DNA of 64,000 nt from Escherichia phage vB_EcoM_01, in sequence record PP129558; one strand, 5' to 3'. The translations under genes were made by a program, and so were the position numbers. The notes beneath the pieces are model-generated. The model ran no database searches, was not told the origin of the DNA, and was given only the letters and a program-made list of their open reading frames with translations. Position 1 is the stretch's first letter. The number at the start of each line of letters is the position of its first letter. Positions 14,462 to 26,509 of the stretch are shown here, one piece after another.

Positions 14462-15190
14462 TTATTTCTTAGCAATGATTTTTGCAATATCAGGTTTAAC
14501 AAAGGTAGAAGGCTTCATGATCTTACCTTTATCATCAAAGAACACATACACTTTCTGTTTTTCATTATAAACAGCATGAACACCAGTGTATGCCCCTTCT
14601 GGACGATTGGCATTTCGTTCTTCAATTGCAGCGCATTCTTGTGCAATGGCTGAATCGATATCCGAAGTTTTCCAAGTTTTCAGCAACTGTTGTTTAGTTG
14701 GATACTTGGAATCATTACTTTTCAATACCTCTTTAATAACTTTCTTTTCTGGATATTTTGAACGGATTAGAGTGTCACGAGACATACGCATAATACCAGC
14801 AGCCATTAGTGCCATTTGAACTGGCTCTGTAAATGTTTGTTCCAAAGCATCAAAATCAGTATACACAGTTGGAGTAAAAACATCGCCTACAACATAGTCC
14901 AAGAAATTCATCGTATGTTCTTCACCAAAGAACATGTAAGTAAGATAACTGGATACTACAAAAATATCCGCTGCTGCATCCAAGAGTTCTACATGATCGT
15001 TTACTTTCGCGGCTGTTTCATACTCTTTAAGCTCTTCACGAACGAACCCGATTTGGGACATAAATAGCTCTTGAGTGAATTCAGGTTGTTCACCACCTCG
15101 TGCTTTGGCATTCCAATCAATTACGTGCTTTGCTGCATTTTTGAAAAATTCAGTATCGAATTTAATATCTTTAAAAAAATTCTCGATCAT
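14462..15190 (-). CDS. hypothetical protein, possible MazG-like NTP pyrophosphohydrolase
   Basis: 242 aa; REELKEYETAA...ELLDAAADIF resembles the EExxE...ExxD acidic motif of MazG-type enzymes; weak. Confidence 0.3.
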   Translation of the reverse strand: MIENFFKDIKFDTEFFKNAAKHVIDWNAKARGGEQPEFTQELFMSQIGFVREELKEYETAAKVNDHVELLDAAADIFVVSSYLTYMFFGEEHTMNFLDYVVGDVFTPTVYTDFDALEQTFTEPVQMALMAAGIMRMSRDTLIRSKYPEKKVIKEVLKSNDSKYPTKQQLLKTWKTSDIDSAIAQECAAIEERNANRPEGAYTGVHAVYNEKQKVYVFFDDKGKIMKPSTFVKPDIAKIIAKK

Positions 15191-15199
15191 TATAACTCC

Positions 15200-15382
15200 T
15201 TATTTAAAATAGCTTTCTAGAAAGTTGCTAATATTTACTACAGACTCACCCATGTAAATCCCTGCGAAACCGAAAACAAGCATACGTGGAATATTGAAAT
15301 ACCATTTATCTGCCGGAAAAGATGCCAGAATTACGATAGCAATTGCTATCAACATCATAAGAATTGTTGCTAAAATTATCAT
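15200..15382 (-). CDS. small membrane protein (60 aa, two hydrophobic segments)
   Basis: Start MIILATILMMLIAIAIV with GGAGG 6 nt upstream; the ORF-track version (15200..15487) extends into the duplicated segment. Confidence 0.4.
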   Translation of the reverse strand: MIILATILMMLIAIAIVILASFPADKWYFNIPRMLVFGFAGIYMGESVVNISNFLESYFK

Positions 15383-15626
15383 AAAAATGCCTCCAGGTAT
15401 TTTGCACAATGATAAGCTAAGAACATTTTTCCTCCTTATTCTGCTGGTTCCCAAGTGCCTGGGATCATTTCTCGAATACGATAGCAATTGCTATCAACAT
15501 CATAAGAATTGTTGCTAAAATTATCATAAAAATGCCTCCAGGTATTTTGCACAATGATAAGCTAAGAACATTTTTCCTCCTTATTCTGCTGGTTCCCAAG
15601 TGCCTGGGATCATTTCTCGAATACGA
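15332..15626. repeat. perfect tandem duplication of ~146 bp (15336-15480 = 15481-15625)
   Basis: Unit holds the ligase 3-prime end, an RBS and the start of the small membrane protein; same size class as the other duplications and the gap flanks. Confidence 0.85.
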
Positions 15627-16708
15627 ACACCAACAGGTTTTGTTGGAATACCTTCATCTGAAAATTCTTCATACTCTATTTCAACGAACTGATTAATCAA
15701 GGTAGAAGCATTCTCTGCTTTACGATAATTGATAGTCTCATGAGCATCTTTACGCATTAAGAATTCGACTACTTTACCATTTTCCATCTCACCTGTCAAC
15801 ACTCCATCACCATTTTTATCACTTTTTGAATTTGTTACTTTAACTTCAAGGGTGTGGCGAGGCTTACGTTTAATAACGTCATAAGAACGTTTATCAAATT
15901 CGTAAACTCCGTGAGCATTACGATATACTACACCTTCAGCTTTCTCAAGTAAAGCTTTTTCATAGAAAGCATCAAACTGTTCTTGGTTTTCAATATACTC
16001 TGTATGAACTACGCAAATAAGCTCGTCAAGACCATAATCTTCAACTACTGCCTTAAGAGCAGCAAGAACATCAACACGTTTTTCAAACGGTAGATCTGGA
16101 ACTGGAATATCGTATACGTAATAATTCAGCAAAGGTGTATTTGCATTATGCTTCTTCCAGGCACTGTTAATTTGTTGCAGACTAAGGACACCTAACCCAG
16201 CAAACACTTCACCATCAAGAGGATGACCAACAACTTCACTAATAAAGTTTGGAATACCTTTCCAATGAGGTGGCAGGTTATACACTTCTCCAGCTTTTGA
16301 TAAACACTCCCCTTTCATGTTAATCATAGAACGTAACCCGTTCAGTTTGTATTGTGCATAACCAGGGAACACAACCCTTTCAGGATAATCTTTATAATCC
16401 TGGCATTTCATTGGTGTGGAAGGAACATGGTTTTCAGCTTCTTCTTTTGTTTTATAATAGCCATTCTTTAACTGTTTTGTCCATTTGGCAAAAGCTTCAA
16501 GTTCAGCTTGTTCTTCTGGTGTTGTTTCATTGGAACGACCGATGTTTTTTGCTTCTGCTGTATAAGATTTTTCTGTGATTTTTCCACCTACCCTTCCATG
16601 AGCTACAGTAACAACTGCACCATCTGTATACACTGTCCACTGTTTAAGTTTTCCTTTTGAATCTTTACCATACAGCGTTTGATTTGTTTGTTGCATTAGT
16701 CCTCCCAT
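15581..16708 (-). CDS. ATP-dependent ligase (nucleotidyltransferase superfamily), probably DNA ligase
   Basis: 375 aa; motif I KLNGLR (KxNG variant of KxDG), motif III LDGEVF, motif IV EGVVYR, motif V DVIKRKP. Confidence 0.55.
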   Translation of the reverse strand: MGGLMQQTNQTLYGKDSKGKLKQWTVYTDGAVVTVAHGRVGGKITEKSYTAEAKNIGRSNETTPEEQAELEAFAKWTKQLKNGYYKTKEEAENHVPSTPMKCQDYKDYPERVVFPGYAQYKLNGLRSMINMKGECLSKAGEVYNLPPHWKGIPNFISEVVGHPLDGEVFAGLGVLSLQQINSAWKKHNANTPLLNYYVYDIPVPDLPFEKRVDVLAALKAVVEDYGLDELICVVHTEYIENQEQFDAFYEKALLEKAEGVVYRNAHGVYEFDKRSYDVIKRKPRHTLEVKVTNSKSDKNGDGVLTGEMENGKVVEFLMRKDAHETINYRKAENASTLINQFVEIEYEEFSDEGIPTKPVGVRIREMIPGTWEPAE

Positions 16709-16917: not shown

Positions 16918-17102
16918 TCATCTTCATCCCAAGATTCAAAAACGCAGCAATCATCGGTTTCTATAATACCAACACGTCCGCAGGTATTGCAAGTGATTTT
17001 ATCACCGTAGAATAAATAATTTTTATCACCCTCTGTGTTTACAGTTATGTCATTACTACCACAAGGGCAAGTCAGCCAACCAACAACGATATCTTTTTTC
17101 AT
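16914..17102 (-). CDS. hypothetical zinc-ribbon protein
   Basis: 62 aa; CPCG...CNTCG Cys pairs. Confidence 0.3.
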   Translation of the reverse strand: MKKDIVVGWLTCPCGSNDITVNTEGDKNYLFYGDKITCNTCGRVGIIETDDCCVFESWDEDE

Positions 17103-17111
17103 AATCCCTCC

Positions 17112-17438
17112 TTAAGCGTTCAGTTCGTTGTTGAGTTCGTAAATCTCTTCTTGAAGAGCATCAATCTCTTCCTCCAAACGGGAGATCTCTTCTTTTAGAT
17201 ATACCATTTCTGATTCTTTCTCTTCTAATTCATTTTCAAATTTTACTTTATTCGCCTCATTTTCATAATGCAGTTCAGCGTAATCATCACGCATTTGTTC
17301 AATAAGATGAATCAGAGATAAGATATAGTTATCCCCAGTTTCATCTCGCCACTCTTCCCCGTGGCGCAAGATTGTGATTCGTCCAGTATCTTCATCTAAA
17401 ATTGTCTCATATTTACGATCATCTGTATAAATCTGCAT
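17112..17438 (-). CDS. hypothetical coiled-coil protein
   Basis: 108 aa; C-terminal heptad-like E/L-rich region. Confidence 0.35.
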   Translation of the reverse strand: MQIYTDDRKYETILDEDTGRITILRHGEEWRDETGDNYILSLIHLIEQMRDDYAELHYENEANKVKFENELEEKESEMVYLKEEISRLEEEIDALQEEIYELNNELNA

Positions 17439-17447
17439 TATTTCTCC

Positions 17448-17852
17448 TTATTGAAGTTTAAGTGAACCACGAAGACGCTTCTCTTGCTGATCACGAATAT
17501 ATTGTGGAACCTCGTGAATTGAATCATTACCGTGCCTATTTTCAACAACTAAAGAGATAACTTGATAACCAAACTCTTCAGCAAGAGTTAGATAAGGTTT
17601 AAGTTCTTTCTCTGTGGTTGAAGTGTTAGAAACAATAATCTTGTTAAGATTAGATGCCATAGCATCACGAACAATACTCTGACACCATGCGTGTGCTTTA
17701 CCTACATTTTCTGGCTTCCAATCGTAAACACCACTTTCTGTGTAATGATATTGATCTGCCTCACAGATAGGCCAATAACCTTCAGAAATAATTTCTGCTA
17801 CTGTAGATTTACCAGCACCTGAAACGCCACGTAAAATGATAAGTTGTTTCAT
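17448..17852 (-). CDS. P-loop polynucleotide 5-prime kinase (T4 Pnk kinase-domain-like)
   Basis: 134 aa; Walker A GVSGAGKST; IIVSNTS and LAEEFGYQV segments resemble the T4 Pnk kinase domain as recalled from memory; no phosphatase domain. Confidence 0.5.
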   Translation of the reverse strand: MKQLIILRGVSGAGKSTVAEIISEGYWPICEADQYHYTESGVYDWKPENVGKAHAWCQSIVRDAMASNLNKIIVSNTSTTEKELKPYLTLAEEFGYQVISLVVENRHGNDSIHEVPQYIRDQQEKRLRGSLKLQ

Positions 17853-18785
17853 TTATCCTCCAAAGAAGTTTTCGATTTTTTCACGTCGCTCTTGCTGATT
17901 TAAAGCAGCCCATTGAGTCTTCGTAAAATTATTTCGAATCCATTCTAACAAAGCGTAATATTCTTCGTCAACAATTTGTTTGGCATTTTTTGGATTATCC
18001 CAAATCAGATCCCACTTTTTATCTCCACCGCGCATAAGAAACTTCTTAGTAAGATAGTGTGGTGATTTAATTTTTAAAAGTAAGTTGAACGGATAGTTTG
18101 TTTCACGAACTACAAACCCTTCGTGTTTACAATGCTTAGACATTTCAACAACATCTGAAAACTTAACCATTGGATGAACTTCAGGACGCTTAAATTTGGT
18201 GACAGAAGCAATCCCATCAAGAGCACCTTCAGGTAACATAAAACTTGTCCCATCAGGATTTTGAATTCTGGCACCAATTAAGTATGCACCTGGTTCTTCT
18301 TCGACAATATGTGGATCAGAAGGATCACAGATTTCAAAAAGGAAAGTTGCTTTTGCACTCTCTGTCCATTTGATGAAATGTTCTATGTCATCACACTCTG
18401 AAACAATACGATTCTTTGCAATACTTGCAAAATCTGATTCAAGGCTTCCTGTTGTCGATACAATAAGCTGACCTTTATATACACCTACAGAGGCCATAAA
18501 ACCATTTACTTTACGAACCACATCTACAAATTCATCCGCTGGTAGATCTGTGCCATTCTCAAAACGATTAAAAATCTTAGTGAAAGGCCAAATAACAACA
18601 TTGTCATCAGCGTCAACAACGATTCCGCGACATTCTAGAAGACGAGAATCAATGTTCCACAGGTTATCCCAGAAAACTTTGTTCTTATACTTAAGAACAG
18701 ATAGACCAGAATACTCTCCTTCTTTATATGTTTTCTTATGAACTAAACCTTTTTCAACCAAATCGTCGCAATTAAATTTAGTCAC
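17853..18785 (-). CDS. RNA ligase-like nucleotidyltransferase (Rnl-type)
   Basis: 310 aa; motif I KVNGFM, motif IV EGFVVR, motif V LLLKIK; sits between the kinase and the phosphoesterase. Confidence 0.45.
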   Translation of the reverse strand: MTKFNCDDLVEKGLVHKKTYKEGEYSGLSVLKYKNKVFWDNLWNIDSRLLECRGIVVDADDNVVIWPFTKIFNRFENGTDLPADEFVDVVRKVNGFMASVGVYKGQLIVSTTGSLESDFASIAKNRIVSECDDIEHFIKWTESAKATFLFEICDPSDPHIVEEEPGAYLIGARIQNPDGTSFMLPEGALDGIASVTKFKRPEVHPMVKFSDVVEMSKHCKHEGFVVRETNYPFNLLLKIKSPHYLTKKFLMRGGDKKWDLIWDNPKNAKQIVDEEYYALLEWIRNNFTKTQWAALNQQERREKIENFFGG

Positions 18786-18786
18786 A

Positions 18787-19338
18787 TTACTCTCCTTTGA
18801 TTATTTTGTGATGGTCTACAGTTACGATATCTCGTTTACTCATCATAGAAATTATCTCATCAAAATGTAAGATTTTTCCATGTGCATCCCAACCCACATC
18901 TAACATTTTACCATAAGCTTCATCAGGGAAAGATCCGTGGGAATGCCCATGTAGCATGATTGATCCACGACCTTGTTTATTCCAGGAGGCCATAGGGTAA
19001 TGGCTTAAGACGAAGAACAGCTTCTGATATTTCACTTCGTCATAATACACCACTTCTCCATACTCTGCAAGCACTTCTCGGTGTTTGCTGTAATCATGGT
19101 TCCCAACACAATAAGTGATATCCCCTTGGAGGCGGGAAGCAATCTTACGGGTATCTTCTTCAGTCCCGAAACAGAAGTCACCCAAATGCCACATCTTGAC
19201 ACCTGGACTCGTAGCGCATTTATTCCATGCTTCGATCAGTGCTTCTGTCATGTGGTCCATATCTTCCCACGGTCGATATTCAGGAGCAAACTCTCGTATA
19301 CGTTTGTGCATAAAATGCAAATCACTTGTAATAAACAT
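18787..19338 (-). CDS. calcineurin-like metallophosphoesterase
   Basis: 183 aa; DLHF, GDFCFG, GNHD and GHSH motifs of the metallophosphatase fold. Confidence 0.7.
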   Translation of the reverse strand: MFITSDLHFMHKRIREFAPEYRPWEDMDHMTEALIEAWNKCATSPGVKMWHLGDFCFGTEEDTRKIASRLQGDITYCVGNHDYSKHREVLAEYGEVVYYDEVKYQKLFFVLSHYPMASWNKQGRGSIMLHGHSHGSFPDEAYGKMLDVGWDAHGKILHFDEIISMMSKRDIVTVDHHKIIKGE

Positions 19339-19694
19339 TAGTATAATCCCTCGCTAAATAGGTCACGATCATGACCATTACGTTCGTAGTCAATCTGGTC
19401 TGCGTGTTTTGCAATAATGTATGCATCTTCACGACTCCACCAATTGTAGTATTGATCAATAAAACCTTGATTGTTTGGAAGACAATGCACTTTATCAAGC
19501 ACACCTGCTTCTTTCAATACATTCAATTGTGCTGATAATACAGGATTTGCATGTCGAACACAAGGAATAATTAACTCTTCACCATTATTCAAAATATATT
19601 TATTCGCAGCACAGACGATAACACGTTGCGCATAATGACCCTCACCAATCCAGGTAAGAGGTTGGTAACAAATGTTCTGATCAATACTACTCAT
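19338..19694 (-). CDS. hypothetical protein
   Basis: 118 aa; AAGGAGAA RBS; its 5-prime end lies in copy 1 of a tandem duplication. Confidence 0.4.
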   Translation of the reverse strand: MSSIDQNICYQPLTWIGEGHYAQRVIVCAANKYILNNGEELIIPCVRHANPVLSAQLNVLKEAGVLDKVHCLPNNQGFIDQYYNWWSREDAYIIAKHADQIDYERNGHDRDLFSEGLY

Positions 19695-19913
19695 TAAGTT
19701 TCTCCTTAATAGTGAACACGAATCATTTTAATACCATAACGCAGCATGGATTCTTTTGCAAGCATATAACACGTTGCGCATAATGACCCTCACCAATCCA
19801 GGTAAGAGGTTGGTAACAAATGTTCTGATCAATACTACTCATTAAGTTTCTCCTTAATAGTGAACACGAATCATTTTAATACCATAACGCAGCATGGATT
19901 CTTTTGCAAGCAT
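19617..19913. repeat. perfect tandem duplication of ~148 bp (19618-19765 = 19766-19913)
   Basis: Unit holds the last 18 codons of gene 19854..20210, the intergenic RBS and the first 26 codons of gene 19338..19694. Confidence 0.85.
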
Positions 19914-20210
19914 GAATTTATCCCCAGCGGCGGGGTTAGAAGTATGCACGAAAATGGTAGGTGAACCAAAGCAAGGTTTACCAAACGCCAGAAGTTCTTC
20001 CAGGTACAGGAAAACATCATACCCATCTTGGTCTGACTCCATACCCAAATCGTTGTCAAAATGCCACTCGTCTACAAAACGATAACCCTTCTGCACCTCA
20101 TTCATGTAACGAGAGGCAAGAAGTTCCTGTGAGGTTTTAAACCAGATTGCATCTGGACAACCATAATCTTTTGGATCACGTAAATCATCAAGCCAAATAA
20201 TAGTACCCAT
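19854..20210 (-). CDS. hypothetical protein
   Basis: 118 aa ORF in the operon. Confidence 0.4.
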   Translation of the reverse strand: MGTIIWLDDLRDPKDYGCPDAIWFKTSQELLASRYMNEVQKGYRFVDEWHFDNDLGMESDQDGYDVFLYLEELLAFGKPCFGSPTIFVHTSNPAAGDKFMLAKESMLRYGIKMIRVHY

Positions 20211-20220
20211 ATAACCTCCT

Positions 20221-20691
20221 CTAAGCTGGCATTATTAAAAAAGAACTCTCCACTTCAAAATGCCAATCATCCACAAGCCCTGATTCCCAATCCTTCTCTT
20301 CATGGAAAGAGCAAATCCAACGGTACATACCTGGCGGTGTATTCTCAACATCTTCTGGCAACCCGTAATCCAAAGCTGTCAAACCGTTCTCTGTAAAACT
20401 AGGATGGAGATTAGGAGCTTTCAATACAGAAACCATGCCTCCAACATCTACAGCCACAATCCACTCTGTCATGTATGGGCTGTCATATTGAGGCTCATCA
20501 GAACCTACCTCAACAGCCTCTGTGCGTAAGATGATAATAGCCTGCTCTGTGATTGGGGCTTTGACAATATAACCTTGGTCCTCAAAAAGATCGATAACCT
20601 CGAACTCATCGCCGTTTTCGACACCATAACTCTTATTCAAAGAGATAAACTTCGGGTTATCATCGTAAGCTTTAGTTACTTTAATTTTCAT
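20221..20691 (-). CDS. hypothetical acidic protein
   Basis: 156 aa, D/E-rich. Confidence 0.4.
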   Translation of the reverse strand: MKIKVTKAYDDNPKFISLNKSYGVENGDEFEVIDLFEDQGYIVKAPITEQAIIILRTEAVEVGSDEPQYDSPYMTEWIVAVDVGGMVSVLKAPNLHPSFTENGLTALDYGLPEDVENTPPGMYRWICSFHEEKDWESGLVDDWHFEVESSFLIMPA

Positions 20692-21351: not shown

Positions 21352-22003
21352 TTCTTTTTGCTCCTCTTTTTAGATTTCTCATACAAACCTAACACAGCCG
21401 CTTCTTTTGCACAAGTAGGAACTGAAGTCATTCCTCTTCTTTTTGCTTCTGGCAGTTGCAAAGTCCATATTCNGTCTCTTATNNNNNNNNNNNNNNNNNN
21501 NNNNNNNNNNNNNNNNNNNNNNNNNNNNNNNNNNNNNNNNNNNNNNNNNNNNNNNNNNNNNNNNNNNNNNNNNNNNNNNNNNNNNNNNNNNNNNNNNNNN
21601 NNNNNNNNNNNNNNNNNNNNNNNNNNNNNNNNNNNNNNNNNNNNNNNNNNNNNNNNNNNNNNNNNNNNNNNNNNNNNNNNNNNNNNNNNNNNNNNNNNNN
21701 NNNNNNNNNNNNNNNNNNNNNNNNNNNNNNNNNNNNNNNNNNNNNNNNNNNNNNNNNNNNNNNNNNNNNNNNNNNNNNNNNNNNNNNNNNNNNNNNNNNN
21801 NNNNNNNNNNNNNNNNNNNNNNNNNNNNNNNNNNNNNNNNNNNNAGAGACAGCTTTTACACACTTCAGGAAAGTCTTGATCATTTCTTTTTGCTCCTCTT
21901 TTTAGATTTCTCATACAAACCTAACACAGCCGCTTCTTTTGCACAAGTAGGAACTGAAGTCATTCCTCTTCTTTTTGCTTCTGGCAGTTGCAAAGTCCAT
22001 ATT
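21331..22003. other. assembly gap: N run 21481-21844 flanked by ~140-bp duplicated sequence
   Basis: Flanks near 21331-21473 and 21861-22003 are identical, with ambiguous bases beside the Ns; ORFs made of X codons are artefacts. Confidence 0.9.
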
Positions 22004-24495: not shown

Positions 24496-24570
24496 GGCCC
24501 TGTAGCTCAATGGGAGAGCTGTCGGCTCATAACCGATAGGTAGCTGGATCGAAACCAGCCAGGGCCACCA
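24496..24570 (+). tRNA. tRNA with CAT anticodon (Met or Ile2)
   Basis: Manual fold: acceptor GGCCCTG/CAGGGCC, D stem GCTC/GAGC, anticodon loop CTCATAA, T arm GCTGG-ATCGAAA-CCAGC, encoded CCA. Confidence 0.7.
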
Positions 24571-24572
24571 AC

Positions 24573-24647
24573 GTCTTTATGGTGTAATGGATAGCACAGG
24601 AGTCTTCTAAACTCTTAGTCAAGGTTCGATTCCTTGTAAAGACACCA
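24573..24647 (+). tRNA. tRNA-Arg (anticodon TCT)
   Basis: Acceptor GTCTTTA/TAAAGAC, anticodon loop CTTCTAA, T arm CAAGG-TTCGATT-CCTTG, encoded CCA. Confidence 0.75.
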
Positions 24648-24650
24648 GAA

Positions 24651-24831
24651 CATTTTAACATGAATTAGCTCAAGTGATTTGAACCCACTACTGATCATGG
24701 TGGCAGAGAATGAGGCAAGTATGTCAGACATTATAAACAAAGGCCACGGTTATATTAGAAGACATAAATGCTCGAAGAGCACCGTTCGTGGAGAGCGGGG
24801 GTTGGTGGAGTCACCATTCATGGTAAAATGT
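24651..24831 (+). ncRNA. candidate structured RNA (~180 nt) closed by a 17-bp long-range stem
   Basis: AACATTTTAACATGAAT (24651-24667) pairs with ATTCATGGTAAAATGTT (24815-24831) with one mismatch; between two tRNAs; the 63-aa ORF inside is probably not coding. Confidence 0.3.
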
Positions 24832-24843
24832 TTTAAAAAACTA

Positions 24844-24872
24844 TTGACAACTAACATTATTTTATGTTAGAT
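24844..24872 (+). promoter_or_regulatory. candidate promoter (TTGACA-N17-TTAGAT) ahead of tRNA-Ser
   Basis: Consensus -35 hexamer; the tRNA 5-prime end at 24882 is at a plausible distance from the -10. Confidence 0.4.
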
Positions 24873-24881
24873 TATAAGTAT

Positions 24882-24972
24882 GGAAGGGCAAATCGACGTG
24901 GCGACGAAAACGGTCTTGAAAACCGCCGAGCTTGAAAGAGCCTTGGGAGTTCGACTCTCCCTCCTTCCGCCA
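24882..24972 (+). tRNA. tRNA-Ser (anticodon TGA), type II
   Basis: Acceptor GGAAGGG/TCCTTCC, anticodon loop CTTGAAA, long variable arm, T arm GGGAG-TTCGACT-CTCCC, encoded CCA. Confidence 0.65.
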
Positions 24973-24977
24973 GATTA

Positions 24978-25063
24978 GGTAGATTGGTGAAATGGTAGCC
25001 ACGACAGTTTGCTAAACTGTAGTCGGAAACGGCGTGTAGGTTCGAGTCCTACATCTACCGCCA
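24978..25063 (+). tRNA. tRNA-Ser (anticodon GCT), type II
   Basis: Acceptor GGTAGAT/ATCTACC, anticodon stem ACAGT/ACTGT with loop TTGCTAA, long variable arm, T arm GTAGG-TTCGAGT-CCTAC, CCA. Confidence 0.65.
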
Positions 25064-25193
25064 AGTTCTTTTTAATGTAGCTTACTTTAGCAGAGTAAAT
25101 CTTCGGCAAGTGGCGGTAACCACTTTACCGATACCTCATAGTTAGTGGTGAGAACACTGGCTATTTTAAAAAGAATTTAAATATTAGTATTTA

Positions 25194-25281
25194 GGTGAGT
25201 TAATTCCGTAGGGGTAGCGGGGCAGACTGTAAATCTGTTATCATTGCGATTCGGGTGGTTCGACTCCATCACTCACCACCA
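25194..25281 (+). tRNA. tRNA-Tyr (anticodon GTA), type II
   Basis: Acceptor GGTGAGT/ACTCACC, anticodon loop CTGTAAA, long variable arm, T loop TTCGACT, CCA. Confidence 0.6.
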
Positions 25282-25287
25282 AATTAA

Positions 25288-25373
25288 GATGAGTTGGCTG
25301 AATGGTTTAAGCGGCGGACTGTTAATCCGTGTTCGAAAGAACAATATAGGTTCGAATCCTATACTCATCGCCA
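25288..25373 (+). tRNA. atypical type II tRNA whose anticodon loop parses as GTT
   Basis: Perfect acceptor GATGAGT/ACTCATC, T arm ATAGG-TTCGAAT-CCTAT, CCA; best anticodon arm GCGGA-CTGTTAA-TCCGT gives GTT, yet there is a 15-nt variable arm with its own GTTC-GAAA-GAAC hairpin. Confidence 0.4.
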
Positions 25374-25380
25374 GAATTAT

Positions 25381-25457
25381 GGACTTGTAGAGTTAAGGTA
25401 AACCCCCAGTCGCCAATAGGCTTCTGGAATTGCAGGTATCGAATCCTGCCGAGTCCC
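25381..25457 (+). ncRNA. tRNA-like element with aberrant anticodon arm (possible tRNA pseudogene)
   Basis: Acceptor GGACTTG/CGAGTCC and T arm GCAGG...CCTGC (8-nt loop) are present, but the anticodon region forms a bulged hairpin with an AATA tetraloop; no CCA. Confidence 0.3.
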
Positions 25458-25463
25458 AGCATT

Positions 25464-25538
25464 GCTCCTATAGTATAATGGCTATTACAACGGTTTTGTA
25501 ATCCGTGGATCTCTGTTCGATTCAGTGTGGGAGCACCA
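25464..25538 (+). tRNA. tRNA-Thr (anticodon TGT)
   Basis: Acceptor GCTCCTA/TGGGAGC, anticodon loop TTTGTAA, T loop TTCGATT, CCA. Confidence 0.6.
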
Positions 25539-25811
25539 ACACAACATTAAGAGCACTGTGATTGATCGTCGTATCCTGTGCACAAGGTCTGCTCGAAAGA
25601 CAGTGTTCTTAGTATTGTGTTGATCACAAAAAGAGTCACCCGAAACTTGACCGGAGTAGGGTTGGATGGGGCAAAATGAGAAGCGGCTCTCCCATCGACA
25701 GCAACGAAGAATAATATTTGACTTTGGTTTTGTATTATTTTAAGTTAGCTTACCGAACGTAGGGCTAGTCACCCAACGGGATACTCGTCACTGTCCCAAT
25801 CAATAAAAGTC

Positions 25812-25841
25812 TTGACAACAAATAGTAAAATGTAGTATAGT
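25812..25841 (+). promoter_or_regulatory. sigma70-like promoter (TTGACA-N18-TATAGT) ahead of tRNA-Gly
   Basis: Consensus -35 and near-consensus -10; the tRNA 5-prime end is 12 nt downstream. Confidence 0.55.
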
Positions 25842-25852
25842 AAATATATAGG

Positions 25853-25926
25853 GCGTTCTTGGTGTAGCGGTAGCATTCCGTCCTTCCAAGTCGGCGGCAC
25901 GAGTTCGATCCTCGTAGAACGCTCCA
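25853..25926 (+). tRNA. tRNA-Gly (anticodon TCC)
   Basis: Acceptor GCGTTCT/AGAACGC, anticodon loop CTTCCAA, T arm ACGAG-TTCGATC-CTCGT, CCA. Confidence 0.6.
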
Positions 25927-26024
25927 AATTATTTAATAAAGGGTTGCCAGAAAACTTTCTCTTTTACTCATGGTTTTCTCCTTCTCTCACACTTCTTCTG
26001 GTTGCCCTTCATTAAATGATTTAT

Positions 26025-26100
26025 TGGTTTGTAGTGTAGTCCGGTAGCACACGACACTTTGACTGTCGTAGGTTTGGTTCAAATCCAGACAGACCAGCCA
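26025..26100 (+). tRNA. tRNA-Gln (anticodon TTG)
   Basis: Acceptor TGGTTTG/CAGACCA, anticodon stem CGACA/TGTCG with loop CTTTGAC, T loop TTCAAAT, CCA. Confidence 0.7.
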
Positions 26101-26270
26101 TATAACGGAATTTAGCTCAGTTTGGTAGAGCGTACGCTTTGGGAGCGTAGGGTCGCAGGTTCGAATCCTGCAATNCNGACAGACCAGCCATATAACGGAA
26201 TTTAGCTCAGTTTGGTAGAGCGTACGCTTTGGGAGCGTAGGGTCGCAGGTTCGAATCCTGCAATTCCGAC
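26091..26270. repeat. 90-bp tandem duplication with ambiguous bases at the junction (26175, 26177), duplicating tRNA-Pro
   Basis: 26091-26180 equals 26181-26270 apart from ncn; copy 1 of tRNA-Pro (26106-26180) is 3-prime degraded by the ambiguous bases; probably a consensus artefact. Confidence 0.7.
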
Positions 26271-26272
26271 CA
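26196..26272 (+). tRNA. tRNA-Pro (anticodon TGG)
   Basis: Acceptor CGGAATT/AATTCCG, anticodon stem TACGC/GCGTA with loop TTTGGGA, T arm GCAGG-TTCGAAT-CCTGC, CCA. Confidence 0.7.
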
Positions 26273-26278
26273 ATTAAA

Positions 26279-26352
26279 TGTTTCGTAGTTCAATGGTAGA
26301 ACCCACGACTGATAATCGTGAGACACAAGTTCGATTCTTGTCGAAACAACCA
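26279..26352 (+). tRNA. tRNA-Ile (anticodon GAT)
   Basis: Acceptor TGTTTCG/CGAAACA, anticodon stem CACGA/TCGTG with loop CTGATAA, T arm ACAAG-TTCGATT-CTTGT, CCA. Confidence 0.75.
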
Positions 26353-26354
26353 GT

Positions 26355-26424
26355 TTCCCGTTAGACTTACAGGATAAGAGATCCACAATTTATTGTGACG
26401 CTGGTTCGAATCCAGCACGGGATA
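26355..26424 (+). ncRNA. tRNA-like element with tetraloop in place of an anticodon loop
   Basis: Perfect T arm GCTGG-TTCGAAT-CCAGC and a 6/7 acceptor pairing, but the central arm is CACAA-TTTA-TTGTG (4-nt loop); CC without A at the 3-prime end. Confidence 0.3.
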
Positions 26425-26430
26425 CCTAAT

Positions 26431-26509
26431 AGCGGGATAGAGGAGTCTGGTCGTCCTCGCCAGTTTCATATGCTGGAGATCATTGGTTCAAATCCAATTC
26501 CCGCCTCCA
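26431..26509 (+). tRNA. second tRNA with CAT anticodon (Met or Ile2); A1-C72 mismatch
   Basis: Acceptor AGCGGGA/TCCCGCC (position 1-72 unpaired), D stem GAGG/CCTC, anticodon stem CCAGT/GCTGG with loop TTCATAT, T arm ATTGG-TTCAAAT-CCAAT, CCA; lacks the three G-C pairs of an initiator anticodon stem. Confidence 0.6.

Follow-up and report, generated by a model that had tools for sequence, protein, structure and literature searches.

A metallophosphoesterase, Rnl1-type ligase and kinase cassette in a phAPEC8-like phage as a probable RNA heal-and-seal module

Defences that cut tRNAs or other RNAs are now considered common and include PrrC, RloC, PARIS, retrons, Cas13 and toxin-antitoxin RNases. 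To our knowledge, T4 is the only phage with a demonstrated repair pathway. It encodes two proteins, Pnkp (pseT), in which a HAD (DxDxT) phosphatase is fused to a kinase, and the RNA ligase Rnl1 (rnlA/gp63), and the two genes are clustered, 1.4 kb apart. In bacterial Pnkp systems (Clostridium thermocellum; Capnocytophaga Pnkp1-Rnl-Hen1), a P-loop 5' kinase, a calcineurin-type 3'-end metallophosphoesterase (MPE) and a lysyl-AMP ligase are domains of one polypeptide or of a complex with the methyltransferase Hen1. Fungal and plant Trl1 is one trifunctional protein with an Rnl1-clade ligase domain, a P-loop kinase and a 2H phosphodiesterase, and it requires a 2'-phosphate and a separate Tpt1. A sirtuin-centred RNA-repair neighbourhood, with a T4-like tRNA ligase, cREC, a nucleotide kinase, MazG and a calcineurin-like phosphoesterase, was predicted in phage rV5 and Proteus phage Mydo (Iyer et al. 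2022, PMC9503650, section 3.7.3), and a 2025 Pakpunavirus paper (PMC12846349) made a similar RNA-repair prediction for related phages.

The DNA analysed here, referred to as the window, is a 64-kb stretch of Escherichia phage vB_EcoM_01 (PP129558), a Phapecoctavirus (phAPEC8-like) with 98% identity to Klebsiella phage ZCKP1. It carries adjacent genes for an MPE, an Rnl1-family ATP-dependent RNA ligase and a P-loop kinase. We give a probability of roughly 0.7 to the reading that this trio is a phage RNA heal-and-seal module, functionally equal to T4 Pnkp plus Rnl1. The reading draws on the conserved linkage of the trio, on fusions of MPE homologues to RNA-repair domains and on distant ligases paired with Pnkp. 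The targets are most likely RNAs, for example tRNAs, that defence nucleases of the host have cut, in line with the purpose presumed for the T4 pair, undoing anticodon-nuclease damage. The idea of RNA repair is not new: PMC9503650, PMC12846349 and the GenBank annotation of close relatives say much the same, and in ZCKP1 the trio carries the labels RNA ligase, phosphoesterase, and ATPase or polynucleotide kinase. Since the prediction already stands in annotation and literature, the discovery is incremental. In the literature, we found no biochemical or genetic experiments on any member of this cassette clade, and the passages retrieved from the HIDEN-SEQ preprint on an rV5-like phage do not mention the cassette genes.

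Gene order and junctions at the locus

The three genes lie on the minus strand in the order MPE (18787-19338; 183 aa; ORF list, Pfam and phrog_547), ligase (17853-18785; 310 aa, GTG start; Pfam, profile and predicted fold) and a kinase-only protein homologous to the kinase domain of T4 Pnk (17448-17852; 134 aa; Pfam, phrog_505 and hhalign). The original prediction had described three adjacent, translationally coupled genes, and we recovered them at exactly the same coordinates, with junctions that overlap or leave 0-1 nt. Between MPE and ligase, a TAA stop is followed by 1 nt and the GTG start, with AAAGGAGAG a short distance 5' of the GTG. Between ligase and kinase, the TAA directly abuts the kinase ATG, and GGAGGA is found 5' of the ATG.

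The cassette extends beyond three genes. Upstream of the MPE gene, and translationally coupled to it by a TAATG stop/start overlap, is a gene encoding an Arn.3/Y16D-family protein (19338-19694, minus strand; 118 aa; PF26092 by Pfam, phrog_839). A gene for a cREC (cyclic-phosphate-processing receiver-like) domain protein is located further upstream (19854-20210, minus strand; 118 aa; Pfam PF20274). On the other side, an ATP-dependent DNA ligase gene (15581-16708) lies 1.1 kb downstream, and a MazG-like nucleotide pyrophosphohydrolase (Pfam PRA-PH, 2.7e-6; phrog_671) is encoded at 14462-15190 on the minus strand. Promoter and terminator scans gave no useful signal (41 promoter-like sites observed versus 31 expected). 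The Arn.3/Y16D-family gene and the cREC gene had both been missed in the first reading of this DNA.

The activities expected for RNA repair were correctly described as split over three polypeptides rather than two as in T4: the kinase and a binuclear MPE are encoded by separate genes, in contrast to the fused kinase and HAD phosphatase of T4. The window shares its three kinds of component with bacterial Pnkp, but encodes them in three small ORFs, and no Hen1-like methyltransferase is annotated beside the cassette in close relatives.

Families and catalytic residues of the three proteins

The ligase matched Pfam RNA_lig_T4_1 with 56.3 bits (curated cut-off 28.3; E 5e-15). A profile was required to reach a solved structure, since a single-sequence PDB search gave no match; the profile search found T4 Rnl1 (2c5u, E 1e-10; hhalign E 4e-10). 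Motifs I (K92-V-N-G95), IV (E222-G223) and V (K238-x-K240), which the original prediction had named, are present and do not vary among 27 homologues; the same holds for motif III (E151). R53, K70 and F72, also invariant in the 27, correspond to the T4 Rnl1-specific residues R54, K75 and F77. In total, ten residues align with essential ones of T4 (R53, K70, F72, K92, G95, E151, E222, G223, K238 and K240). Two T4 Rnl1 positions that we take to be essential, D101 and K119, are changed to N94 and T112. In a Foldseek search with the AF2 model (pLDDT 90.6), fungal Trl1 ligase and T4 Rnl1 came out on top (E 5e-14 to 2e-12, TM 0.61-0.65), the best match being the Trl1 ligase domain 9qw7 (E 5e-14), while Rnl2 and DNA ligases scored far lower. 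Profile and structure comparison (Pfam, hhalign and AF2/Foldseek), which had been proposed as a check, thus assign the protein to the Rnl1 clade of RNA ligases and not to the DNA ligases.

The window ligase is 64 aa shorter than T4 Rnl1. Most of the T4 C-terminal helical domain, which is associated with tRNA specificity, is either lacking or cannot be aligned: motif V is followed by only about 70 helical residues, compared to about 130 in T4, and the hhalign alignment ends at residue 266. As this region is short and mostly unalignable, tRNA specificity of the ligase cannot be assumed.

The kinase matched Pfam AAA_33 (40.5 bits, cut-off 27; E 4e-10) and phrog_505, 'polynucleotide kinase' (2e-8). 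A profile was again needed, as a single-sequence PDB search returned P-loop noise only. The profile matched Pnkp1 (4xrp, 5e-9), PSTK (3e-8), T4 Pnk (1ly1, 1.3e-7) and the Clostridium Pnkp kinase (4gp6, 4e-7), so that by profile similarity the closest solved relatives are RNA-repair (RNA-end) kinases, those of bacterial Pnkp among them. The described resemblance to T4 Pnk extends over the whole domain, with residues 1-134 aligned by hhalign to PseT residues 1-150 at 97.7% probability. The P-loop G9-x-x-G-x-G-K15-S-T and D33 are invariant; the alignment sets D33 one residue off T4 D35, and their exact equivalence is presumed. The protein stops at 134 aa and no HAD (DxDxT) 3'-phosphatase domain was found in its ORF, making it a kinase-only relative rather than a Pnkp.

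The MPE, predicted earlier to be a calcineurin-like phosphoesterase, scored above the cut-off for Pfam Metallophos (25.4 bits versus 21.5) and matched phrog_547 (9e-56). All signature motifs are present (D6xH8, G53D54, G79N80H81, H113 and G131H132xH134) and show little or no variation among 22 homologues, indicating an intact binuclear-metal motif set. Among solved structures, the functionally unassigned Aquifex protein aq_1665 (1xm7; profile E 4e-21) comes nearest. The window differs from bacterial Pnkp in that its ligase belongs to the Rnl1 clade and in that a profile search with its MPE, up to E 1, gave no specific match to the phosphatase of Clostridium Pnkp. One MPE homologue, with 53% identity, forms a single protein with an RNA ligase of the PF09414 family, unrelated to the ligase of the cassette, and in further homologues the fusion partner is the RNA-repair domain HAD_SAK_2. 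We consider the MPE a putative healer of 2',3'-cyclic or 3'-phosphate RNA ends. A candidate fusion of MPE and ligase in one related locus (L014, a 504-aa ORF) was rejected, since an in-frame stop separates the two genes.

Linkage across phages and the proposed pathway

We sampled 42 loci, representing 17 ligase clusters at 70% identity, and found the partner genes by profile search. The MPE gene was beside the ligase gene in 42/42 loci and the kinase gene in 41/42, with the whole trio in 41/42. The linkage was kept where gene order or strand had changed, rV5 and RSP15 being examples, and the trio behaves as a single module in distant phages. The carriers include phAPEC8-like, rV5-like, Pakpunavirus, Aeromonas, Vibrio and Ralstonia phages. 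Phage therapy makes use of several of them. The ligase clade is essentially phage-only: a search of 185,579 bacterial and archaeal species genomes gave one match, on a MAG contig, leaving no cellular counterpart for comparison.

Many GenBank labels for these genes read just 'ATPase', 'phosphoesterase' or 'tail fiber attachment catalyst', and small MJ0936/YfcE-type MPEs are generic phosphodiesterases. These points would fit three unrelated jobs brought together by mere synteny, with the MPE as a protein phosphatase or signal phosphodiesterase, the kinase acting on small molecules and the ligase serving as a gp63-like tail-fibre attachment factor. We give this very little probability, because the linkage outlasts rearrangement across 17 lineages, neighbouring genes are joined by coupled stop and start codons, RNA-repair domains are found fused to MPE homologues, and the ligase has invariant catalytic residues that a protein with a purely structural part could do without.

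The DNA ligase downstream of the trio raises another explanation, in which the kinase and MPE heal damaged DNA ends (5'-OH and 3'-phosphate) for that enzyme and the Rnl1-like protein is incidental or acts on DNA/RNA hybrids. T4 Pnkp acts on DNA too, which is in keeping with this, as is a weak match of the MPE to NCBIfam PdeM, a ligase-associated DNA damage response endonuclease (E 0.004, well short of the cut-off). An ATP-dependent DNA ligase gene was present within 8 kb in 27/42 loci. However, it was missing from the other 15, and its distance and side varied, whereas the Rnl1-type RNA ligase is the partner that is invariant and tightly coupled. The domains fused to MPE homologues are those of RNA repair, and the closest relatives of the kinase are RNA-end kinases. 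DNA-end healing is therefore highly unlikely in our assessment.

The pairing of related ligases with known end-healing enzymes points in the same direction as the fusions. Streptomyces phage PinkiePie encodes an Rnl1-like ligase 0.7 kb from a T4-type kinase-HAD Pnkp with 34% identity to PseT. This suggests a non-homologous replacement, in which a kinase-only protein plus the MPE would fill, in the clade of the window, the role of the PinkiePie Pnkp. Trio linkage, catalytic motifs and MPE fusions together support reading the genes as an RNA-repair cassette, as originally predicted.

To the families, motifs, coupling, trio conservation and fusions computed here, we add substrates, an order of steps and an anti-defence role that we infer. 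Cleavage by a metal-independent ribonuclease of the host, for instance an anticodon nuclease, would leave 2',3'-cyclic-phosphate and 5'-OH ends. The MPE would open and remove the cyclic phosphate or 3'-phosphate, producing a 3'-OH, possibly with the upstream cREC protein assisting in cyclic-phosphate opening. The P-loop kinase, judged by its close homology to Pnk kinases, would then phosphorylate the 5'-OH, and the Rnl1-type ligase, given its intact catalytic residues, would join the ends via Lys92-AMP. The trio would represent a compact, widely distributed alternative to the T4 pathway, with a metallophosphoesterase in place of the HAD phosphatase. If it were shown to work, this would account for some of the breadth of their host range, indicate defences that these phages withstand, and provide small stand-alone RNA end-healing enzymes usable as tools.

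Neighbouring genes and the tRNA array

All five components named for the rV5-type neighbourhood besides the sirtuin (ligase, cREC, kinase, MazG and phosphoesterase; 5/5) have homologues in the window. The ligases are 48% identical, the cREC proteins 51% and the MazG-like proteins 31%. The arrangement differs, since the rV5 genes are divergent while those of the window are collinear on one strand. rV5 has a sirtuin, whereas a tblastn search of the 64-kb window with rV5 SIR2 gave nothing at E < 1, and the MPE gene of the window is instead coupled to the Arn.3/Y16D-family gene. A sirtuin was likewise found in 0/5 Phapecoctavirus/Justusliebigvirus loci. The MazG-like gene is a possible accessory of the cassette, although simple synteny between related phages may account for its linkage.

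The cREC protein matched Pfam cREC_REC (PF20274) with 52.7 bits (cut-off 27; 7e-14) and keeps the acidic motifs WLDDLRD and FDNDLG. It is probably an accessory end-processing enzyme. Its position beside the cassette in the window and related enterobacterial phages allows a different route, similar to that of Trl1 in yeast and plants. Here, cREC would open the cyclic phosphate to a 3'-OH/2'-phosphate, the kinase would phosphorylate the 5' end, and the ligase would leave a 2'-phosphate at the junction, which the MPE (a sirtuin in rV5-like phages) would remove, unless it clears by-products. Trl1 likewise pairs its Rnl1-clade ligase domain with a P-loop kinase and with an activity that opens cyclic phosphates, the ligase model fits fungal Trl1 ligase domains as well as T4 Rnl1, and Iyer et al. 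(PMC9503650) proposed the same logic for rV5-type neighbourhoods, with the sirtuin as a KptA/Tpt1-like enzyme. However, in the 42-locus sample cREC was beside the ligase in enterobacterial lineages of ~145-kb phages only. Most lineages that keep the trio have neither cREC nor sirtuin, and the trio core therefore cannot depend on them. With the window itself devoid of a sirtuin by tblastn, and the role of cREC in cyclic-phosphate processing a prediction (PMC7824862, PMC9503650), we regard the Trl1-like route as unlikely.

The heal-and-seal reading leaves room for a contribution of the Arn.3/Y16D-family protein. It has 45% identity to T4-like arn.3 products, and the family occurs in 1569 phage records, scattered over T4-like, Ackermannviridae and other phages in unrelated contexts. 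The stop/start overlap, a confidently predicted fold and invariant polar residues (R47, H48, Q76, D80, R88, S114 and Y118) are pointers to its acting with the MPE. The fold has no solved relative, and a single-sequence PDB search gave no match. Membership in the system is uncertain, as the gene adjoins the trio in just 5/42 loci. In these 42 loci, the Arn.3-like gene occurred alone in 5, a sirtuin alone in 11, and both together in 0. Replacement of the sirtuin by the Arn.3-like gene was considered and kept at low probability, since the positions differ and the family is found in unrelated contexts. We think it quite improbable that the protein is an undescribed enzyme or specificity factor that aids the MPE on RNA ends and might replace the sirtuin step of rV5-like phages. 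If true, this would be the first function for a family of more than 1,500 phage genomes, T4 included. In one T5-like contig, a gene of this family also adjoins an MPE gene.

The original prediction placed a 12-tRNA array alongside the cassette. In that prediction the array is one of two arms of a proposed counter-defence against host nucleases. The count was borne out, with 12 Rfam matches above gathering (24496-26506) plus one below threshold (11 by ARAGORN). The array (24496-26509, plus strand; ARAGORN and Rfam) is nonetheless 5.7 kb from the ligase gene and on the opposite strand, making the link to the cassette loose. tRNA genes were found within 8 kb of the ligase in 23/42 related loci. 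By ARAGORN, close relatives have 10 tRNAs, and one tRNA-Pro copy in the window is part of a perfect 90-bp tandem duplication.

Layout and families of the three genes

The window comes from a Phapecoctavirus (a phAPEC8-like myovirus, Stephanstirmvirinae), and its interval 17000-20300 shares 98% identity with Klebsiella phage ZCKP1 and with many E. coli phages. The original prediction described three adjacent, translationally coupled genes, and minus-strand open reading frames were found exactly where it placed them, encoding a metallophosphoesterase (MPE; 19338-18787, 183 aa), a ligase (18785-17853, 310 aa, GTG start), and a kinase (17852-17448, 134 aa). All three exceeded the curated cut-offs in a family scan (Metallophos, 25.4 bits against 21.5; RNA_lig_T4_1, 56.3 against 28.3; AAA_33, 40.5 against 27) and matched the PHROG annotations phosphoesterase, RNA ligase, and ATPase/polynucleotide kinase, respectively. 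Relatives are named in GenBank as "metallophosphatase", "putative RNA ligase", and "putative ATPase" or "putative polynucleotide kinase". The MPE stop codon is followed by one base and the ligase start (TAA-n-GTG), with the Shine-Dalgarno sequence inside the upstream gene, and the ligase TAA abuts the kinase ATG. Both junctions have the form of a translationally coupled unit, as had been proposed.

A profile of the ligase built from 27 homologues matched T4 Rnl1 structures at 1e-10, and residues 48-266 aligned with the T4 rnlA product at 4e-10 (hhalign). Ten residues invariant in the family (R53, K70, F72, K92 of motif I, G95, E151, E222, G223, K238, and K240) pair with T4 R54, K75, F77, K99, G102, E159, E227, G228, K240, and K242, the essential set from mutational work. 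The anticipated motifs I, IV, and V are thus kept, aligned to T4 Rnl1, and invariant across the 27 homologues, whereas T4 D101 and K119 are replaced by N94 and T112. The best solved matches of the AlphaFold model (pLDDT 90.6) were fungal Trl1 ligase domains and T4 Rnl1 (E 5e-14 to 2e-12, TM 0.61-0.65), then archaeal Rnl3; Rnl2, Rnl5, and DNA ligases ranked far lower. Profile comparison and structure prediction therefore both indicate an Rnl1/Trl1-type enzyme. Only ~70 helical residues follow motif V, compared with ~130 in T4, so a T4-like tRNA preference should not be assumed.

The resemblance of the kinase to the T4 Pnk kinase domain was borne out across the whole protein, which aligned with T4 PseT residues 1-150 (probability 97.7%, hhalign). 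A profile from 23 homologues, in which the P-loop and Asp33 are invariant, gave full-length matches to Capnocytophaga Pnkp1 (5e-9, the best solved match), seryl-tRNA(Sec) kinase (3e-8), T4 Pnk (1.3e-7), and the Clostridium thermocellum Pnkp kinase domain (4e-7). The 134-aa protein has no HAD phosphatase domain, making it a kinase-only relative of Pnkp.

The MPE conserves the complete set of signature motifs. Among solved proteins, only Aquifex aq_1665, which is uncharacterised, matched it strongly (4e-21); the weaker matches are small phosphodiesterases, including GpdQ, MJ0936, and YfcE. Comparison with solved structures found no specific link to the Clostridium Pnkp phosphatase, and its predicted substrate therefore rests on context. 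When the MPE was searched against 1.8 billion representative proteins, one 524-aa match proved to be a fusion of an MPE (53% identical to that of the window) with an RNA ligase from another family, PF09414; this ligase domain has a lysine and motifs IV and V of its own. Two further matches combine the MPE with the "Swiss army knife" RNA-repair domain HAD_SAK_2.

Linkage and predicted function of the trio

We sampled 42 loci containing relatives of the ligase (41-100% identity, 17 clusters at 70% identity). Profile searches found the MPE in all 42 and the kinase in 41. The commonest order is MPE-ligase-kinase; the genes are divergent in rV5, the order is kinase-ligase-MPE in Ralstonia phage RSP15 and others, and the number of intervening small genes varies. 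Linkage that persists through such rearrangements argues for a shared function, and we regard unrelated functions of the three proteins as the least probable reading. Streptomyces phages carry a more distantly related Rnl1-like ligase and, 0.7 kb away among tRNA genes, encode a genuine kinase-HAD Pnkp of the T4 type with 34% identity to PseT. In the window's clade, the kinase-only protein and the MPE would together fill the functional slot of this Pnkp. Outside phages the ligase clade is nearly absent: 185,579 species genomes yielded a single MAG contig.

These results support, in silico, the proposed RNA heal-and-seal role, and we assign a probability of roughly 0.7 to the trio being such a module against host RNA or tRNA nucleases. 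The MPE would heal 3' ends, the kinase 5' ends, and the ligase would seal via Lys92-AMP; the trio could act against host nucleases in the way that T4 Pnkp and Rnl1 act against PrrC. Healing of DNA ends for a neighbouring ATP-dependent DNA ligase, encoded within 8 kb in 27 of the 42 loci, is very unlikely in our judgement; the trio's own ligase is of the Rnl1/Trl1 type.

Upstream genes and published neighbourhoods

The cassette appears to extend beyond the three genes originally described. Immediately upstream of the MPE, and overlapping its start (TAATG), is a T4 Arn.3/Y16D-family gene (PF26092, 118 aa), preceded by a cREC gene (PF20274, 7e-14). The Arn.3/Y16D protein has invariant polar residues and a confident model (pLDDT 92.7), for which a fold search found no solved relative. 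Within the 42-locus sample its pairing with the trio is confined to Phapecoctavirus and Justusliebigvirus; elsewhere the family is scattered among phages, and in one T5-like contig it also adjoins an MPE gene. The cREC family was predicted by Aravind's group to be an opener of cyclic phosphates (PMC7824862, PMC9503650). A Trl1-like route to the same function, with cREC opening the cyclic phosphate, is the main alternative, though an unlikely one; Trl1 ligase domains are among the best fold matches of the ligase.

For phage rV5 and Proteus phage Mydo, Iyer et al. 2022 (PMC9503650) interpreted as RNA repair a gene neighbourhood comprising a sirtuin, a T4-like tRNA ligase, cREC, a nucleotide kinase, MazG, and sometimes a calcineurin-like phosphoesterase. 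The window has homologues of every member except the sirtuin, for which none was found. In a 2025 paper on a Pakpunavirus, the kinase, RNA ligases, and tRNA cluster were similarly interpreted as evading tRNA nucleases; the kinase was noted to lack a phosphatase domain, and the nearby MPE was left unconnected (PMC12846349). Because existing annotation and these two papers already make the call, the prediction for the trio is not new, and the window's cassette joins a kind already known and predicted. Its make-up, without a sirtuin and with a coupled Arn.3/Y16D gene, is lineage-specific.

Two flanking features were also observed. A 108-aa coiled-coil protein (phrog_18076; 17112-17438) starts 9 nt past the stop codon of the kinase gene, behind a Shine-Dalgarno sequence of its own, and is found 3' of the trio exclusively in loci of Phapecoctavirus and Justusliebigvirus; its labels ("hol-like chemotaxis", in some records even "DNA polymerase I") look like annotation carry-over. 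In Pseudomonas phage JG004 (Pakpunavirus; locus L050, 6328-9163), genes with the annotations ribose-phosphate pyrophosphokinase and nicotinate phosphoribosyltransferase, apparently an NAD-salvage pair, directly follow the kinase, placing NAD metabolism beside the repair module in a sirtuin-less lineage.

The tRNA array and exact duplications

The count in the proposed 12-tRNA array was recovered by Rfam (12 matches above the gathering score and one below), with 11 tRNAs called by ARAGORN. Its position "alongside" the trio holds only loosely: the array is on the opposite strand, and 5.7 kb with a block of small early genes separate its start from the ligase. In 23 of the 42 loci, tRNA genes occur no more than 8 kb from the ligase (counts uncorrected for phylogeny), and a loose association is plausible. 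Two tRNA-like elements missed by ARAGORN (24882-24968 and 25194-25278), one a tRNA match above the gathering score (39 bits) and the other a long-arm tRNA-Sec-like match below it (37 bits), may represent phage tRNAs that are atypical or degenerate.

A perfect 148-bp tandem duplication (19618-19913; 2.0 copies, 100% identity) covers the cREC gene end and codons 1-26 of the Arn.3/Y16D gene, and accounts for the 160-nt "gap" between these genes and a short chimeric ORF. It is absent from ZCKP1, and in PNJ1809-36 this site is instead occupied by a genuine additional ORF of 144 nt; the duplication is probably an assembly artefact or very recent. Perfect two-copy tandem duplications also occur at 15332-15626 (145 bp; the DNA ligase gene 3' end and the small ORF after it) and at 26088-26264 (90 bp), the latter doubling tRNA-Pro(UGG) and thus giving one tRNA more than in close relatives. 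The presence of three exact duplications of this size (90-148 bp) in a stretch of 11 kb points to a possible assembly problem. In the region ~21480-21880, a run of N is flanked on both sides by the same C-terminal (...LPEAKRRGMTSVPTCAKEAAVLGLYEKSKKRSKKK) and N-terminal (MIKTFLKCVKA) peptides, and, lying between duplicated ORF ends, looks like a scaffold gap whose overlapping ends were left unmerged.
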